Assembly: GCA_037379345.1 (NCBI GenBank)
Contig: CM074512.1
Coordinates: forward strand, 59,045,597 to 59,109,596
Source of the DNA: Perna viridis
Taxonomy: Eukaryota
DNA length: 64,000 nucleotides
Direction of reading: 5' to 3'
The stretch's first letter is position 1. Each line of letters opens with the position of its first letter. The position numbers were made by a program, and so were the translations under genes. Shown in pieces: positions 418 to 26,800 of the stretch. Under the pieces are notes generated by a model. That model worked only from the letters and a program-made list of their open reading frames with translations. It had not been told where the DNA came from and did no database searches.

Positions 418-1918
418 TTAGTACCATGACGATACAGTGTACAAAATAGTTGTATTTTTAAGCATTAATCAACATGCAAAACTAATGCAACATTTATTAA
501 AAAAAATTATAAACTAGTGCACACCTGATACACATACATTGTATTATTATTAAGCAATTCATGAAAAAATAGGAAAGCCTACTAAAACAGTTAAAAATGC
601 TAAAATCAACCCTATTACAGTGCTCCAGCTATGGCAGCTAGCCTTTTCTGCTCTTCACATGAATTTGAAAAAAAGAAATATGTGTACATGAACATGTCAC
701 TGTCTTTTTTTCATGTACATTTAAATACATTACATGTATGTTGTACATTATACAAATGTAACATACATGTACAAAACTGCACATGGCAGTCTATATAGTT
801 TATTTTCAGCTATACATGTGAATGTACAAGTATTTTGTCAAGTCACAAATGAGTGCCAAAAAATGCACAAATTATGCCCTTAATTTTTTTTGTATATAAG
901 TACATGTATTGTAATGCATTCTATTTTCTAGTCTCGTTAAGTACACTGTTTATACATTGTACATGTACAAATGTAATTACTTCAGCATGATTGTGTTTGC
1001 ACTCCAGCTGATATAATATTTTAAACCTTGTTGTTTCTTATTAATTGTTTGTTAAAATTTCTTACTTCAATTTTTCAACTTATACATTTGTAGGTGTAAA
1101 AAAAAATAGAGATTCCCCAAGGAAAATGATATTATCCAATGAAACTTTAGTTACATGAATTAATACTTATGTGTATGGAATAAATTACAGACTTTTTCAA
1201 ACCTTAATTTTAGGTCAAACTTGGGCCACATTCCCAAAGAGAAATATGCTTCTAATTTCCCAGATTTGTACATGATTAAAATGGAGATTTGTGAGAAGTA
1301 CAAGATCTACTCTCCACTCTATTGTATCAAATCTGTCATCCAGAGTTCACTTCATTGACTTAAATACTATGGAAACAGTACTGATTCTCATGTGGATTTT
1401 AATTAGCAATTATTTATAAAACACTATAAAAATTCTTGCCTTCACAAAAGATTATTTCCCAAAACTGCAAATTTCACTAATTTTCCCAATGGGCCCAGTC
1501 CCCTTCCCAAATACAGAAGGAAAATTGCTTACATTTTAGTAAGACATTGATACCTGACATAGCAGCTTAGCCTACATAGTATGCAAACAGCTACTACATG
1601 TACATACAGCTCTATACCCTTATACTCAGTGAACATTGATTTTTGCCAATTTAAGAAACTGATATTAATTTAAGTAGACATGATTTTTCAAGGAACAAAA
1701 GGGGAAATTGAGAAAATCATAAATAAAAAAGATACAGTTGTAGTATTACTAATGTTACTGTAACAAAATAACTAATACTATTACCGGTAAATTACATGAA
1801 GTAAAATCTAGGCACATACAAATGTACATTTGTAATTACAATGTATATGCAACACTTTCCCTTTTATATTCTAACAGTCTAACTGTTTGATCAAGTTACC
1901 CTTCTTTCTTCAGAGAAG

Positions 1919-2434
1919 GCCCCATGCAGGTCCGGGTGTCAAAAGAATAGGCCTGCAGCAGCCCTAAGCCTGTCGTAAAAGGCGACTAAATAGTGCTCAG
2001 AACCTTAGCCGGGGGCTAGGGCACTCTGCCCACACAGAAACAGGGTTGTGTGCCCCAGGTGGTGGAATGGGGTACCCCTGGTATGTTACATGCTGGGGTT
2101 GTCGGGCTATAATACGGAAAACCTGACCGCAAACCATAGTGATGCACCGTGTTGGGAAAGATGCCACGTTTCTCGCACGTTAAAGAACCCTACTGTGGTA
2201 TTCTCCCGGAGTAGGAACCATAGGGCTCCGCCACAGGAGGCTAAATTGCCCGACCCTACCCACCTCTCCCTATTTCCAGTGGCAATCAAAATTTCTCAAC
2301 CCCGTTGTCCTTGTGTCCCATCCCATTTTTCATTTGATCATCATTTCATGTTCATATTATCATCCACTTCATGTTCATCGCCTGAATATAGCTGAAATAT
2401 TGCTGCTCGGGCGTTAAACCCAAACAAACAAACA
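1919..2434 (+). mobile_element. SINE-like non-autonomous retroelement, copy 1
   Basis: 12-bp TSD TCTTCAGAGAAG (1907-1918, 2435-2446); (CAAA)n tail; central GCACGTTAAAGAACCC...GAGTAGG...GGCTAAATT resembles the Deu/Nin SINE domain; second copy at 23.4-24.0 kb. Confidence 0.9.
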
Positions 2435-2549
2435 TCTTCAGAGAAGTACTTACTATTCCTGCTAAAAAATTATTTTAAATGTGTACATTTGTATATGCAC
2501 TGTGAAGAATGCAGAAACATCAAAAGTGTTGACAGTAGTGTACTTGTAC

Positions 2550-14877: not shown

Positions 14878-17800
14878 CTGAAAGAATAAATTTTTGTAAA
14901 AATAAACTACTAAATTATTCAAGTTAATCTTCTTACACAATTGAAGTTTAGCACTTGAATTCATACAATTTACCATTTATTATGACACGATGTGCAAAGT
15001 TTATTTTTTTATGATAAATTATAAATTACCAAATTTGCATTTCATAGTCTTCCCAGACTCAGAATAAACGAGGTCTATTAAATATTTTATAATGTGGACA
15101 GTTTATCCCCGGGACTGATGATCTTCTCTGAAAACTGAATCCTAAGTAACCAAGGTGACATGACAACAAATATATCAAATATCAAAAGATAATGGTTTGA
15201 TAACTATAGAAATCAATAAAAAAAGGACAAAATTCTATTCTTCATGACAACACAATGCCCCATAAAAACAAAGATATATTTAGTTATAGGAAAGAGTCAA
15301 GTTTCTATTTGACATAAGGAAAAGATAAGAGAGCTTGATTAATACATGTTTTATTTATAAATAAATAAACATTAATCACTGATAAAGGGGAGCTTGGGGA
15401 AAATCAGAAATAAAACAGACTAAAATACTATGCAAGGATCAGCTTGATGTGACTGCATAAATTGAATCTGAATAGAGGGAGTATGGACAAAACATTCAAG
15501 CTTAATGCATCTTTGAATTTATATAGTGATTAAATTTTTTGGCTAAGCATGGGTTAATGACATCAAGTGAATGTGGTAAAAAAAAAAATAAAAATTGAAC
15601 ATTAACATATTATGATGAAGGGACTGTATTAAGGAAAAAAAAAAGCATATTCATGATGACCAGGAATAAAATGACTACAGTGAATGGATCTGTTTTAAAT
15701 TATACAGCAAAGTCAATATAAATACTTGTGCTTGTATTTTAGTGCAATGTCTTTTGATTGTGAGTTGTTGTCTTGGCACCTAAACCCTTTAAATTCCAGG
15801 TCATTAAAACGTACAGAGAAAATGGATAAAAATGAAATATGCTCCATAAACCACACTGTGACAGCTTGATACAAATGTTGAGGTAGAACCTAGAATACTT
15901 TGGGCAATTTTATACACAGCATTTAAGCTTGATACAGCTCTAAATAAACAAATATAGCTTCAAAGAGTAATCAAGGCAACCAAGATTCTAGCTGAAATCA
16001 AAAGAATTTAATCCAGGGACAAAGACCAGACATGGAAAACAGACAAAAACAACAAAGAACATAAAGTAACCAAAATGATACACACAAAGTATCAAAATTA
16101 ATGAGCACTCATACTCAACTACAAACTAGGAGCATGGACCAGGTGCACCGGAAGGGTAAGCACCCTCTGCTTATCAAGAAACACCCACCGAGCTGCTCAT
16201 AAAAAGTTAAGTCCGGGGTAAGACGAAAGAGGAAAGGAAAACTATGACAAGTTGAATAAATCAGTGTTCATGGTGCAGATGGATACACCGTACTGATCCA
16301 TGAGTTCATGATGATGACCATAAAATTTCTGTATTGATGACTTAAATCTTGTAGCAACATAACCCTGTTCCAAAAGCCTAATTGTAAGAAGTCTAGCGCG
16401 ATACAAAAAGTCTGCGTAGTTACGGCAAGCTCTGGCATAACGTATGAGTTGTGATATGAAAACTCCATAAGCAGGTGTTGAAGGGATGTTGACAATTCTG
16501 AATGAAAAATCATCACATTTGTCTTAAAGTTTGGTCAACAGTTTTTCTTTACCATCGATCTCTAAGTGTGTAGGTCAAGATATGAGGGCGACTTCATGGT
16601 GTCTGTAGTATCCCCTACCTCAAGTTCTTAGGGATAGACGTGATGTATCAAATCACAGAAACTAGGATTGTTTTAAAAATAATACCTCATCTATATAGCG
16701 GAAATTGAGAAGAAAGGATCTAGCTAAAAGCTCCCGCTTCCATTATGGTTCTTTATATGGTATACTTCTACCCAAATGGGCAGCATACAATTGCCACCAG
16801 TCAAAACCATTTCTTTCAGATCAGATCGGCTAAAAAGTCAGCCTCACAAGAATGATGGAATAGGTCAGCAAGTAGAGGAGCACAATTTGTTCCCATTGGA
16901 ATGCTAATTGTTTGTTTAAAAAGAAAACCCAAAAAAACCTGTCCACCACACTGGACAAATATGTATGTGAAAACATCTTCCTCTGTATATCTGAAAGATG
17001 ATCTGGAAATATTTTTTACAAAGAATGAGGAATCTCTACCAAGAACTATATATTTGTATCCAGGTGTACCATCTTTTTTGGAGAAACAATTATGTATAAT
17101 GTTTTTAAGTCAGGATTTTAACAGAATATGGGGAATAGAAGTATAAAATGTTGAAAAAATCAAATATTTTAATGCTATTATATTCTGATAATAATCTTGA
17201 ATTGAGGGTCTCCAGAAGATCTTTCGAATTTTTCAGGATCCACATTGAATTAATACCACTACGGGAGTAACAAGTGTTGTGGTAGGACTGGAGACCCCCT
17301 TTGACAGCTGTGAGTATAGAAGTTAAAAGTTTTGAAAGAGGTTTGGTGGTAAATTTTGCAGATCCAGCTTTGTAATGTTGTTTGTATGGATTCTTGTGGA
17401 GTTTAGGAATCCAGTACATAGACGTTAAATCATTATCATCATCTTTGGCAGAGAGACCAAAAGAAGACAGCACAGATTTATGGTTATCCACTATCTCTTC
17501 TTTGGAGAGTGTAGTGGCAGTATAGGTCTTATCACTTTTATTATTATCTACATCTACCTTTGATAATAAACATTGAATGTAATACGTTTTGCAGACAAAA
17601 ACAATGTTGTTTTGGGCTTTGTCTACTGGTACGACAACAAAGTTGTCATGTATAGAAGACAATGTTTTTGCTACATCGGGGTCTTTGAAAACTGATGTAG
17701 CATTGACACTCATTGACCTACTTAAAATTTTCATTTGTTTCAAAACTAAAGACCTCCAAGACTTTACCAACTCTGACAGAGAATCAATGTCTTCTTGTTC

Positions 17801-20800: not shown

Positions 20801-23800
20801 ACAGTTTCAAAAAATGATAAGTGTTCTAGTGTTAAAACTAAATTTTGCTGGTACAATTTTTTGCACTTTTCTGACCACCTTGAAAATTAGTTTACCATGA
20901 AAATTAATACTTTTACAGTATATAAAAGATTCCATCAAGAGTTCTTGACAATCATGTTTTTAAAAATTGCTCTGTCTTCATCCTATTGAAAAAAAAAAAA
21001 CAACAAATAAATAAACTATATGAAAAGAGAGAATACAGTGTCATACATACCTATCAGAACCAAGTAACCTAAATTTTCTACTTTTATCACAGATCTCTTG
21101 AGTTACCTATAATAAAAAATAAATGATGCATGCATATTAGGGAAATAAGCAAAAATGACTCTAAGAAAGTTATCATCATAAAAATTCCATCTGTTGGTAA
21201 GACTAACACAAAAATTAGCTTAAGACATGTTGCTGAAACAAGAATCTTATTTTATCCTGTGATATTTTTCATGAAAATCTTGTTTACTCAATTGAATTTC
21301 TTTCATACATCTATATACAGATTGCATGGTTTGGATTTTTAGATGTTGTACTTTCATGCATCTTCAAATTAATCCTTAGCTTTCAGAGTTATGTGTTACA
21401 AGAAGAATAATCTAAAACACTTCTAAGTGAAAAGGACTCACCTCATTGGCTTTAAAACTTCTGCCTTGCATACCATGCTTATGGAAAGCTAAGACACTGT
21501 CTTGCAAACAAACTGAAAATACAGAAATCGTTGTTTAAGCTTCAGAAAGAACAAACAAAAAAATCAAAATAATCTTTTTATTATCAGGAAGTGTATTTTA
21601 TAATCATAGCCAACTGAGCTGGAGTAGGAAAAGGTTACAGGGGAAACCATATTTCTTATGTGATGAAAGCCAGCATAATTGACACAATACATATTGCTTT
21701 AATAAAACCTGATAGGGTTCTGTCATAATTCTCTGGAACTTGGTTCATTTGAAGGGCTTTCGTCAAGTTGTGCAATAGAGGAGGAGCAAAAACAGTTATA
21801 ACGCCAATGGATTTAAGAAATAGACAGGACAGACTGAATAGAATACCCACACAACTTAGTGCATGGAGTATAATTATGGACTAGAATTTATTGAAGGATT
21901 TTATCTCACAAAGAAGGATATCAAATACAGAAATAACTACTTTATTGAAGGATTTTATCTCACAAAGAAGGATATCAAATACAGAAATAACTACAAGTAA
22001 TACACCATGCACTAAAGTGTAAACTATCTAAAATTACATAAACTGAACAAAGAGAAACAAAGCTGCCTTTATTCTATAGTAGGATGTTGTGATGTATTAT
22101 ACAATTAAAAGTGGAAACTTGATATTTTATTTCTCAAATTGATGGGATTTAAAATTCTAATCATCCAATTTTTGGCATCAAGAATTTTGACCCATTTACA
22201 AAATACATTAAAATACTAACAGCTTCACTATTTACATCAAAAACTTTTGACAGAACAATGACCGCATCGGCCCTAAGTATTCTGACATACATACACTCAC
22301 AACAAAGACCACTAGAACATCAATCCCCCACCAACTGAAGCCATAGTGTACCAACCAAATAATAAAGATCTTAGTTATAGTAATATTAGGAGGGAATTTA
22401 GTCCAAACAATAATGATGCTAAACCTAATAGAGCATGAATAATTTTACAGCTTCCTTTAATGGAAAATCATCACTCCATAACCATTTATTAGGTGAAGCT
22501 TCTAGTTTCTATCAACCCTGAAAATAGCTGATGGATAGAGCTATCTTAAGTTGGTCTGCTGATGACCTCAGTGGTTTATTAAGTTTTATTGGATGATTTT
22601 ATTGATTTTCACCCAATCTACTTAATGACAATGATTCAGCATTTTCTCCTACAGCTAGAATCTAGGATGATTTGTTTATGTAAACATCATTTATTCCTAT
22701 GCAGTAACTATTACCTCTTTTTACTGAACACTTTGTATGTTAGCTGCTTCAGGACATAGGTTTTCTACTCCAGTGAACATGATGAAACAATTTATTCTGT
22801 TTGTAGGAACAAATAGAAAGTGTATCCATGCATTATAAATGCCAATTATTTGACCTCTAAGTTATTACAGCAAACTAGCTTTCACTTAGGGAAAAAATTA
22901 AATGAAGTATTTCCAATCCTGAATAGAGAATTAACTGAAATAGCCACACAATTTTCTCTTGAAAAAAAAAATATTATTCAAACCTGGAATTATTTTGAAA
23001 TTTAGAAAATGACCAAAAAAATAATTTGTAAACTATCCCTTAGACGGAAAGGAAAACTTACTAACCCCTTAGTCATTGATAGCATGACTAACCCCCCTTT
23101 GTAGGGGTAAGTTTTACAAATTAATTTTTTTAATTTTTCAAATTCAAATAATACCCTGTTTGAACAATTGTAAGCATAAATGATTGGTAAGAATTTAATA
23201 AATTCTGCTGAAATTTAAATAGGGATCACACAAGTGAGATGTTTTTTCCCCATGTTTTCAACATACAAACCATTTCCAATCAAGATTTGAACAGAAAAAG
23301 CCCAGTACCCCTTGCAGCAATTGTTTTCAATATGTGTTAAAATTTCTTAAAGATGCACTTTACAGGTCTTGACAATTGTGTCCCTCCAGTGATTAAAAAT
23401 AGAATGGGGTTAAAGCAGTATACATTTATTGGTTAGGAACAGTTTGTTTGTTTGTTGGGGTTTAACGTCCGAGCAGCAATATTTCAGCTATATTCAGACG
23501 ATGAACATGAAATTGATGATAAAATGAACATGAAATGATGATGAAATGAAAAAGGGATGGGACACAAGGACAATGGGGTCAACAAATTTTGATTGCCACT
23601 GGAAATAGGGAGAGATGGGTAGGGTCAGGCAATTTAGCCTCCTGTGGCAGAGCCGTATGGTTCCTGGTCCGGGAGAATACCACAGTAGGGTTCTTTAACG
23701 TGCAAGGAACGTGGCATCTTTCCCAACACGGTGCACCACTATGGTTTGCGGTCAGGTTTTCCGTACTATAGCCCGACAACCCCAGCATACAACACGCCAG

Positions 23801-26800
23801 GGGTACCCCATTCCACCACCTGGGGCACACATCCCAGTTGCTCTGTGGGCAGAGCGCGCTAGCCCCCGGCTAGGGTTCTGAGCACTATTTAGTCGCCTTT
23901 TACGACAAGCTTAGTGCTGCTGCAGGCCTGTTCTTTTAACACCCGGACCTGCACGGGGCATTTGTTAGGAACAAAGAATAACTATAATCCATTCTGCTCA
24001 ATACTGGACAATGAGTACAAATAGGGTAAACAAGGGAATCATTGAATCCTTGCATGTCCCTAACAGATTTGTATAGAAATTCTCATATCTAATTAATATC
24101 TGACATATAAGGAAAAAGCTTGGTTCACATGGCGTAGCACAGAAGACATAAAAAACTCCCATGATAAATGACAGACTTACATTTGATGTTTTGCATGTGA
24201 GTAATTACAAGTTTTGATTAAAGATTTTACCCATAGATCAATAATGCAACTGTATGCAGCATCATTCTCAATACAAAATGAAATAAATTATTGAACATTC
24301 TTTTTTTCAATTACGCTGATTCATGCCATTTATGACCCCATATAAAGAAAATTGATAATTTCTAATGCCTAAATATTATCAACCTTGGCTATTTATCTGT
24401 AAAGAAATGGTTTTATAATCTGATATTTTATTAATATAATTTACACCAATTGGAACAGCAATGTCAAACTTCATAAATTTCATTTGTGAAATAGTTTTTT
24501 TTAAACCCATTTCTTCCCATAAACAATCAATAATGTAAATTTGATCAGTTAAAAATCAAACATCATTAAATTTCAGTTATTATCCTTGAACTAATTGAAT
24601 ATGTTAATAGACCATTCATCTGATCAAACCACGACCCTGAAATACCACAGCACCATGTATCCGATATCAGGTAGTTTATATACATTCAATGAATATCTAC
24701 CCTACCAGGATGTGAGGGACCCAGACAATAAGACTAGTGTATGGAGACATTAAATATTGCACTGTAAATAATAACACCTCATTTTTATTCATGTACCTGA
24801 AGTAATAATTGTTTACTTCTATCCAAAAAATCCCAAATAACTCTCCTAACATCATAAAAAGGAATAACTATAAAAAATAAATTAATTTTGTAATGCAACT
24901 GCATCGTTTGCATTTTAATACTTTATGGAATAACAGATGAAATATTTATAGCTAACACAATTCTTACTTCTTTTCAACATGAAACAGTGTAATGGATAAA
25001 AACAATCCAAAAAAGAAAAAGAAAAAAAACCAAAAACCAAAAAAAAAAAAAAACAAAACAAAACAAAACAAGAGGCTCCCAGGAGCCTGAATCACTCACC
25101 TGGTTGAATTTTGCCTTTCAAGGGCAATAAATTAAACAAGTTAATTGACTTTAATAGGACTTATCATAAGGATTATTTCTGTAAATGAAAGTCTAAATCT
25201 ATCATAGTTTTCAAGACATTGGCTGAAAACTGTAAAAAAAAACAACAAAAAACCTGTCATTTTCCCCTGTCAAGGGCAATAACTCTTATAAGAAAGCATC
25301 TGACAAATTTCATGCCTGAAGACTTTTGTAGTCCTAAAAATAAGGACCATTTCAGCTACTGAAAGAATTTGGCTAAACCATATGCGAAAAACTACTGTCT
25401 GACCCCTATGTTCTATTTTTAGTAATGGCAGCCATGTTTTTTGACGGATCAAAAATCCCCACATCAGGTCTATACAGCATACCCCGAGGAACATTCATAC
25501 CAAGTTTGGTTTCAATTGGTCAAGTAGTTCAGAGGAGAAGAGTTTTGAAAAATTGTTAATGACAATGACGGACTCTAAGAGATGGCAATAGCTCACGTGG
25601 CCTTTGGCCAGGTGAGCCAAAAACTTATGTTAAAAAACTACTAACAGTAAACTATTTATGAGAAGGGTGGACATTGTTATAATTTCCAGTATTTTAAACT
25701 GGAAGGCCATCGACTCTATTATACTGTGATAGCATGACCTTTGACAGAGTCTTATTATACAGAACCAGCATGTAAATGTTCCTCCATTTCAGTCCACTTA
25801 ACTGTCACTAATTTCATGGTGGATACTAATTTAAATTCGATCACAATGTGAGCTGAGGCAAACATTAATTCTAAATTGAGTTCAAGCTTTATCATCCAGA
25901 TGTTAAGCATGTTTATTTTGTAGATACTGATTAAGAAAGATCATAAGTGGCTTAAAGTACTGGACTTGATACCACAATGACTTCCCAGACAGTATCCAGG
26001 AACAAACTGTTCCTCAGTACATTGTTCTATATACAATCTCTTAATTTAAAATTATAAAAAATATAATCAATCATAAATTACAATAAACCTAAAATATATA
26101 AAATAGCCACCAATTTTAAAGAAGATCCATCTACAAGCTGAAAATAATCTAAGTCCTGCTATAAAATTGGTCAAATCAGAACAGTGAAAAAGTATGAACA
26201 TCTAGATACACTTCATACGAACAAATTTCAAAGGAATCTGACTGTGGATTTCAGTAAAAATATGACCATTACGTAGATGTGACTACTAAGTTCCTATTCC
26301 TATGTCCTCATATCACTTTGTGGCAAGGGTACAAACAATATACATTTGTATATGAGGTTATTCATTCCCTTATTATACCACCTGTCTTGCTACCCAAACT
26401 ACACCCATACCTGCCAACTTAAACGATTTGTCAATAAATTTTTCTCCATAAACCCTATTTTGTCAAAATAACGTACATAATTCTGAATTCAAACCCCTAA
26501 ATTTGTGTTTTAAATCTCATTTCTTTGATTAGAAAAATTATAAATCTGACAAATGGTGTTAATTTCTGGTTACAATAGCACAATTATGTCTCCTCAGCCA
26601 GATCTTTACCCCAAAATGCAGCCCAGTGGAAAATACAGAAACATTCACGATTGATGGATAATAAAAAAGATATTTTCATGAAAAAAATTGTATGAATAGT
26701 AAGGAACCAAAAGTATCGAATCTGAAAAGTAGCAGCCCATATATGTGTATTTTATGGGGCACTTCAGGCTTAGGGTGGCTACTGAAAAATTGATGTTTGA

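Follow-up and report, generated by a model that had tools for sequence, protein, structure and literature searches.

A pseudoknot-and-hairpin RNA module predicted in the 5' head of a Perna viridis SINE recurs in Nimb-type LINEs and RNA viruses

A head of approximately 70 bp, termed the 'LINE promoter' (LP), is common to Nimb-17_LMi, I-3_DR, RTE-9_CPB and mollusc SINEs (Matetovici 2016, PMC4758252). In the passages of that paper drawn upon here, the head is taken to be a promoter without a test, the dual promoter/ribozyme role of Pr77 is cited as an analogy, and the means by which LP-SINEs without a promoter obtain a precise 5' end is posed as an open question. A second precedent comes from the HDV-like ribozymes found at the 5' ends of R2, RTE and L1Tc/ingi (Pr77) elements (PMC8256844, PMC5786205). 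A third is provided by the exonuclease-resistant RNAs (xrRNAs) of viruses, which are generally located in 3' UTRs (PMC10321173). Each of these papers is cited, here and below, for particular passages. Our searches of the open-access literature recovered PMC4758252 as the only work on LP-SINEs, and no account of the fold described below among writings on retrotransposon and RNA-virus ribozymes, Nimb ribozymes or xrRNAs in connection with retrotransposons. The literal hairpin motif of that fold is absent from the open-access main texts searched and present in the supplement of PMC4758252.

The window analyzed here, a 64,000-nt stretch of the Perna viridis genome, holds two copies of one SINE of about 516 bp, which are 92% identical to each other. 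The features, in window coordinates, are:

1907..1918, + strand: 5' target-site duplication (TSD) of SINE copy 1, 12 nt, exact
1919..2434, + strand: SINE copy 1, with LP head, body and I/Nimb-type tail with (CAAA)n, from homology, TSD and tail comparison
1919..1997, + strand: conserved LP head RNA module (pseudoknot plus hairpin domain), predicted from cross-family comparison and the rows of PMC4758252 suppl. Fig S2
1921..1936, + strand: P1, pairing 1921-1924 with 1933-1936
1925..1957, + strand: P2, pairing 1925-1932 with 1950-1957 and crossing P1 (H-type pseudoknot), with strong covariation between families
1944..1949, + strand: conserved AGAAUA linker, immediately 5' of the 3' strand of P2, present in 7 of 9 viral hairpin-pattern matches
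1960..1997, + strand: P3, pairing 1960-1966 with 1991-1997 and closing an internal loop and P4
within 1960..1997, + strand: P4, a near-invariant hairpin at 1972-1986, then UAAA at 1987-1990
2004..2019, + strand: family-specific hairpin CUAGCC/GGCUAG, outside the common module
2380..2434, + strand: 3' tail of copy 1, similar to the 3' ends of I/Nimb LINEs and finishing in CAAA repeats
2435..2446, + strand: 3' TSD of copy 1
about 23442..23959, - strand: SINE copy 2, with the same start G and its own 14-nt TSD (one mismatch)

The two insertions thus start at the same G with different TSDs, as the first-pass annotation of the window had read them. A DNA search with the first 186 bases as the query gives 3,143 candidate copies in the Perna viridis genome (best 40 scored). 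In a sample of 250 distinct genomic copies, 130 of them full length, an exact TSD of at least 8 nt flanks 82 of the full-length copies and none was found for the other 48. Of these 82 TSDs, 49 end directly before G1, 10 at +1, one at +2 and 22 at -1 to -6. The 5' end of the family is sharp at G1919, and ragged ends, which would have spoken against the earlier reading, are not what the full-length copies display. The sample was drawn by head queries, which under-count 5'-truncated copies, so it informs on the sharpness of the full-length end and not on the frequency of truncation. Contigs from four presumed RNA runs have loose ends at 1919 and at 2431-2434, from which a start is not inferable. 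At the other end, the last ~55 nt are similar to the 3' termini of two I/Nimb-type LINEs and two further repeats that carry the head.

A tRNA- or 5S-derived SINE was considered and rejected: the head contains no Pol III B box and has no Rfam tRNA or 5S match at E≤10, and ARAGORN finds no tRNA. The earlier statement that tRNA boxes are absent therefore holds, the lone exception being a weak A-box-like match at 2060.

Elsewhere in the genome the SINE occurs in arrays and tandem units (C1:9.835-9.838 Mb, loci L064-L067; C15:5.527-5.573 Mb; L131), both as head-to-tail arrays with a period of 504 bp and as 2-3.5-kb tandem units with SINE heads inside. Within the window, an exon at 25-417 on the minus strand encodes the beginning of a protein kinase domain (Pfam Pkinase) that is CDKL-like by motif; SINE copy 1 is on the other strand, some 1.5 kb to the 5' side of this exon. 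The window further contains another dispersed repeat pair (15962-16344 and 47398-47778, 85%) and a 140-bp inverted repeat (46332-46469 and 46845-46984) with arms about 375 bp apart.

Comparison across 12 families supports a model of the head that combines an H-type pseudoknot with the conserved linker AGAAUA and a domain made up of an internal loop and a hairpin. In the common architecture, P1 has 3-7 bp and the crossing P2 has 7-8 bp, at times with one bulge; a variable spacer ends in AGAAUA, and a variable P3 encloses the internal loop and the near-invariant hairpin. The first-pass annotation had already recognized P2, P3 and P4, all of which are kept in the comparative structure, and the stems UGCAGGUC/GGCCUGCA and AGC(G/A)CUA/UAGUGCU and the hairpin GUCGU-AAAAG-GCGAC that it listed are all present. 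Its proposed pairing of the loop GGGUG with a downstream GCCC is rejected; the partner is instead the upstream CCCG (1921-1924), which gives the H-type pseudoknot. Position 1924 within P1 is A in copy 1 and G in 168 of 191 SINE copies. The CUAGCC/GGCUAG hairpin of that annotation is likewise present, but it is confined to this SINE family, without a counterpart in the other families compared.

The nested fold of the head is not stabler than its shuffles (z = -0.23), so the case for the structure rests on covariation, which is furnished by P2. In a MAFFT alignment of 12 non-viral heads, three of the five P2 columns vary on both sides, and the P2 covariation score exceeds those of 500 of 500 shuffles and of every slid control. 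When P2 strands are swapped among 12 families, the mean is 7.1 with the own partner and 0.68 with a foreign one, a difference equaled in none of 100,000 permutations, and the own partner is the best in its row for 10 of the 12; the registers were picked on the own partner, which favors the diagonal. Within the SINE family itself, 165 of 191 copies have A-U at one pair of P2 and six have G-C, the latter probably being one older subfamily. The five P4 pairs are invariant across the alignment and, since they never vary, the pairing of P4 is without covariation support.

Searching viral contigs for nothing but the hairpin motif gave nine matches, seven of which (six independent) also have the AGAAUA linker and an upstream H-type pseudoknot, neither being part of the query. 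A model built from the 12 non-viral heads scores these seven loci (six independent) at 34-66 bits and the best module-free control at 23 bits, with 89 loci searched. The pseudoknot score is 9.0-11.5 in the six viral records. Scores of at least 9 are reached by 86 of 125 Perna viridis matches and 45 of the 123 metagenome matches listed, and by none of 117 matches of a loose viral pattern, which we discarded as chance matches and retained as controls, nor by any of 24 prokaryote-genome matches without UAAA. A score of 0 is seen in 44 of the 123 metagenome matches listed, many of them truncated or decayed copies and some from families without P1. Rfam returned no match on the module in the window or at eight viral and eight other loci; the last set gave only miRNA matches outside the module.

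In the five RNA-virus records, the stop of the last long ORF is followed by the start of P1 after 6-101 nt; a further 88-184 nt separate P1 from the end of the record, which may be incomplete. Four of the five encode an RdRp or capsid by Pfam, and one has a second, tandem copy of the module that is cut off. In a 212-kb DNA-virus record the module lies between two same-strand ORFs and fails our HDV descriptor. An HDV-like ribozyme is known from an iridovirus.

The metagenome scan (at least 123 loci) and the prokaryote-genome scan (29 loci) revealed several further head families resembling animal repeats. The full module is present in five of the 29 prokaryote-genome matches, in a context of repeats, contig ends and a LINE; bacterial elements were rejected as their source, as the matches look like animal DNA inside assemblies. 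The prokaryote records L439, L445, L447, L458 and L460/L472 hold retroelement DNA of animal type, likely as contamination; in one symbiont scaffold this is an entire, intact LINE. The repeat at L447 has a 12-nt TSD and begins at the equivalent G, and the pseudoknot score is only 5 at L439 and L460. Among the metagenome repeats, L149, L180, L199, L203, L204, L212 and similar ones retain AGAAUA and the hairpin domain, but where P1/P2a would lie they have a run rich in pyrimidines or in AT; they may be derived families, or the module may have been reused internally.

The LINE of the symbiont assembly, L472, is an intact Nimb-type element whose first ~75 nt are the LP head module. It codes for an ORF1 with a weak zinc knuckle and an ORF2 with endonuclease, RT and RNase H; no TSD was found for it, and it is most likely host DNA. 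A related LINE in Perna viridis is L473 (801-945; C8:23537700-23537844), a Nimb/I-type LINE with a precise 5' end and a predicted HDV-like ribozyme fold at its start. This family is young (207 candidates, the best 40 scored at 99-100% identity), and its head fits an HDV-like fold with a P1 of 7 bp, a P2 of 8 bp, a P3 of 3 bp, L3 and J4/2. The descriptor was drawn up from general HDV features; shuffles of the L473 head give 2 strict fits in 2000 and 18 loose fits in 200. The ORF2s of L472 and the L473 family are 51% identical, and their UTR homology begins at L472 position 78, right behind the head (0/300 shuffles), whereas the heads are not homologous (17/300 shuffles). Homologous UTRs with unrelated heads mean that two sister LINEs bear different 5'-terminal modules in one slot; the LP head and the HDV-like fold are thus swapped modules. 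Two short stretches of the hairpin domain (window 1970-1990) are identical to the segments of L473 (818-940) that supply L3 and J4/2 in its HDV-like fold, by chance or by common ancestry.

Five search patterns turned up no autonomous LINE with an LP head in the Perna viridis genome (places examined: 30 of 146, 30 of 310, 43 of 80, all 5 and all 7); the matches examined were this SINE family alone. The Nimb-type LINE of that genome bears the HDV-like head (20 loci), and the likeness of the tails suggests that the L473 family mobilizes the SINE. The first-pass annotation had linked the motif to retroelements, possibly of the RTE clade. The link to retroelements stands, with the Nimb/I clade as its main seat and a single RTE in print.

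The LP head fits neither the HDV nor the hammerhead descriptor; the first-pass annotation had likewise been unable to fit it to HDV-like, hammerhead or twister folds. An HDV mapping was rejected because none of 17 LP heads fits the descriptor; none of the 17 has a hammerhead core, and Rfam has no match on the module for hammerhead, twister, pistol, hatchet, twister-sister or other families. Rfam also gave no match for the HDV-like head of L473, so its silence is weak evidence with respect to divergent members.

Taken together, the covariation and the occurrence in RNA viruses indicate that the head acts at the RNA level: a DNA promoter cannot act in RNA viruses, and the presence of the module there supports an RNA-level structure. 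Both grounds support the earlier claim that a conserved RNA structure stands exactly at the 5' end; that the structure fixes this end is an interpretation, strengthened by the HDV-like fold in the same slot of the sister LINE.

Our leading but still tentative proposal is that the head is an xrRNA-like exonuclease roadblock that sets the 5' end of the SINE. Under this proposal, the portable module would fold as a 5'-terminal H-type pseudoknot with a conserved hairpin domain, and the two domains would dock. Elements would be transcribed by read-through from host promoters; 5'-to-3' exonucleases would trim the read-through transcripts back to the first G, where the head would stop them, and the RNA thus protected would be copied by a Nimb/I-type LINE. 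We infer the folding in vivo, domain docking, read-through transcription, nuclease resistance and mobilization by a Nimb-type LINE. In the absence of a Pol III B box, a processing step that defines the 5' end is plausible. The 3'-UTR site behind the stop codon in the RNA viruses, the tandem copy in one of their records and the cost of cutting a linear viral genome at that site also speak for the roadblock. Insertions begin 1-2 nt ahead of P1, and plant-virus xrRNAs stop Xrn1 at the base of P1 (PMC12397905). The coremin xrRNA likewise has the outline of a pseudoknot with a downstream hairpin (PMC10321173). Ordinary H-type frameshift pseudoknots, even with an extra hairpin, failed to stall Xrn1 (PMC10321173); as plain H-type pseudoknots do not stop this enzyme, the invariant hairpin domain would need to add contacts. 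Further observations count against the roadblock: the HDV-like fold in the sister-LINE slot favors self-cleavage just as well; the abundance of unpaired bases that never vary is reminiscent of a catalytic core; and, of the 123 metagenome matches listed, 44 score 0 and only 45 reach 9, with L439 and L460 also low.

The catalytic reading holds that the head is a self-cleaving ribozyme of a new fold, which would cut just 5' of P1 and free the element from read-through transcripts, on the model of the HDV-like ribozymes of R2, RTE and L1Tc. It draws strength from the near single-base precision of the 5' ends and the invariant unpaired bases, from the sister LINEs with their related ORF2s and UTRs and unrelated heads, one of them fitting the strict HDV descriptor, and from the two short motifs shared with L3 and J4/2 of that fold. 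The failure of the HDV descriptor and hammerhead core on every LP head and the want of an Rfam ribozyme match weigh on the other side. Ribozymes do exist in linear RNA viruses, mostly in 5' UTRs and rarely in 3' UTRs (PMC13725137). The module lies in the 3' UTRs of RNA viruses, the typical place of xrRNAs, and for this reason we rank self-cleavage second; a cut 5' of P1 would leave the coding part of those genomes detached from their 3' end, and efficient cleavage there would be costly in all five RNA-virus records. We regard self-cleavage, the nearest rival of the roadblock, as possible but doubtful. With similar reserve, one might see in the head an undescribed class of self-cleaving ribozyme (or exonuclease-resistant RNA), in which an H-type pseudoknot is joined to an invariant hairpin domain and which moves among animal LINEs and SINEs as well as RNA viruses and a DNA virus, able to take the place of an HDV-like ribozyme as the module that defines the 5' ends of Nimb-type LINEs.

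It is improbable, in our estimate, that the head is instead an RNA-level protein-binding, translation or replication element, such as a cap-independent enhancer or an RNP or RT-stop signal, with the 5' end of insertions positioned by template jumping or RT stalling and not by RNA processing. P4 and AGAAUA show sequence invariance and no covariation, as protein contact would give, viral enhancers would fit the 3'-UTR position, and HDV-like heads are also thought to help translation (PMC8256844); yet non-coding SINEs of many families keep the module, and the boundary 1-2 nt before P1 would be left unexplained. Least probable is the published hypothesis of a DNA-level internal Pol II promoter, alone or combined with a function as RNA in the manner of L1Tc Pr77 (the double role cited in PMC4758252), which suits the 5'-end position and the lack of a tRNA head but cannot account for the compensatory changes in P2 or the presence in RNA viruses, so that promoter activity as the sole function is unlikely.

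A cellular xrRNA that sets the 5' end of a retrotransposon was not found in the open-access literature searched. To our knowledge, only a few classes of self-cleaving ribozyme, and of xrRNA, exist. If either the roadblock or the ribozyme reading is true, it would explain the precise 5' end of promoter-less LP-SINEs, the question left open in PMC4758252, and a sequence now classed as a promoter would be reinterpreted. The 80-nt module, with natural variants in retroelements and viruses and a natural HDV-like swap partner, is a cheap subject for in vitro work.

Among the known systems, the bipartite non-autonomous LINE derivatives (Kojima 2018, PMC5786205) resemble the SINE in that both the 5' part and the 3' tail are LINE-like. 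They are known for RTE, Ingi, Vingi and R2, whereas here head and tail indicate I/Nimb, and the Perna viridis search gave no LP-headed autonomous LINE as a parent. Like the HDV-like ribozymes (PMC8256844, PMC5786205), the modeled head is compact and pseudoknotted, starts at the very first base of a non-LTR element and can be exchanged from one lineage to another; it differs in lacking the nested double pseudoknot, with no P3/L3 inside P1, no P1.1 and no P2 after J4/2. Viral xrRNAs, namely coremin and its Watson-Crick variant (PMC10321173) and ST9a/class 3 and flavivirus class 1 (PMC12397905), have a small pseudoknot at the 5' edge, a downstream hairpin, a 3'-UTR position after the stop codon and a tandem copy (PMC10321173, PMC12397905). 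The modeled LP head agrees with them in its 5'-edge pseudoknot, its downstream hairpin, its UTR position after the ORF and, in one viral record, its tandem copy, and departs from them in sequence and stem sizes, with a P2 of 7-8 bp, the AGAAUA linker and the invariant hairpin, and without an Rfam xrRNA match.

The closest system is that of the LP-SINEs (PMC4758252). The passages of that paper drawn upon give a promoter, and no structure, viral occurrence or HDV-like swap; the head is thus not uncharacterized, as the first-pass annotation had it, in its sequence, which is already in print, but it is so in its fold, which, like its viral distribution and swap partner, was not found in print. The SINE body was unmatched to MESC, in motif look-ups only, and in look-ups of the PMC4758252 supplement the central domains of the HCD superfamilies (Meta/MESC, V, Core, Deu) gave a short motif in common with Tgr_1 only. 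The scallop (MESC SINE) rows of suppl. Fig S2 have the same hairpin motif and are able to form the same P1/P2, as are the 'Nimb-17 homology' rows, and the same head stands on the L472 LINE. Like the published elements, with their ~70-nt 5' head common to Nimb-type LINEs and TSD-flanked SINEs and their short tandem repeat ends, this SINE has variable TSDs and (CAAA)n 3' repeats, and it is a new LP-SINE member.
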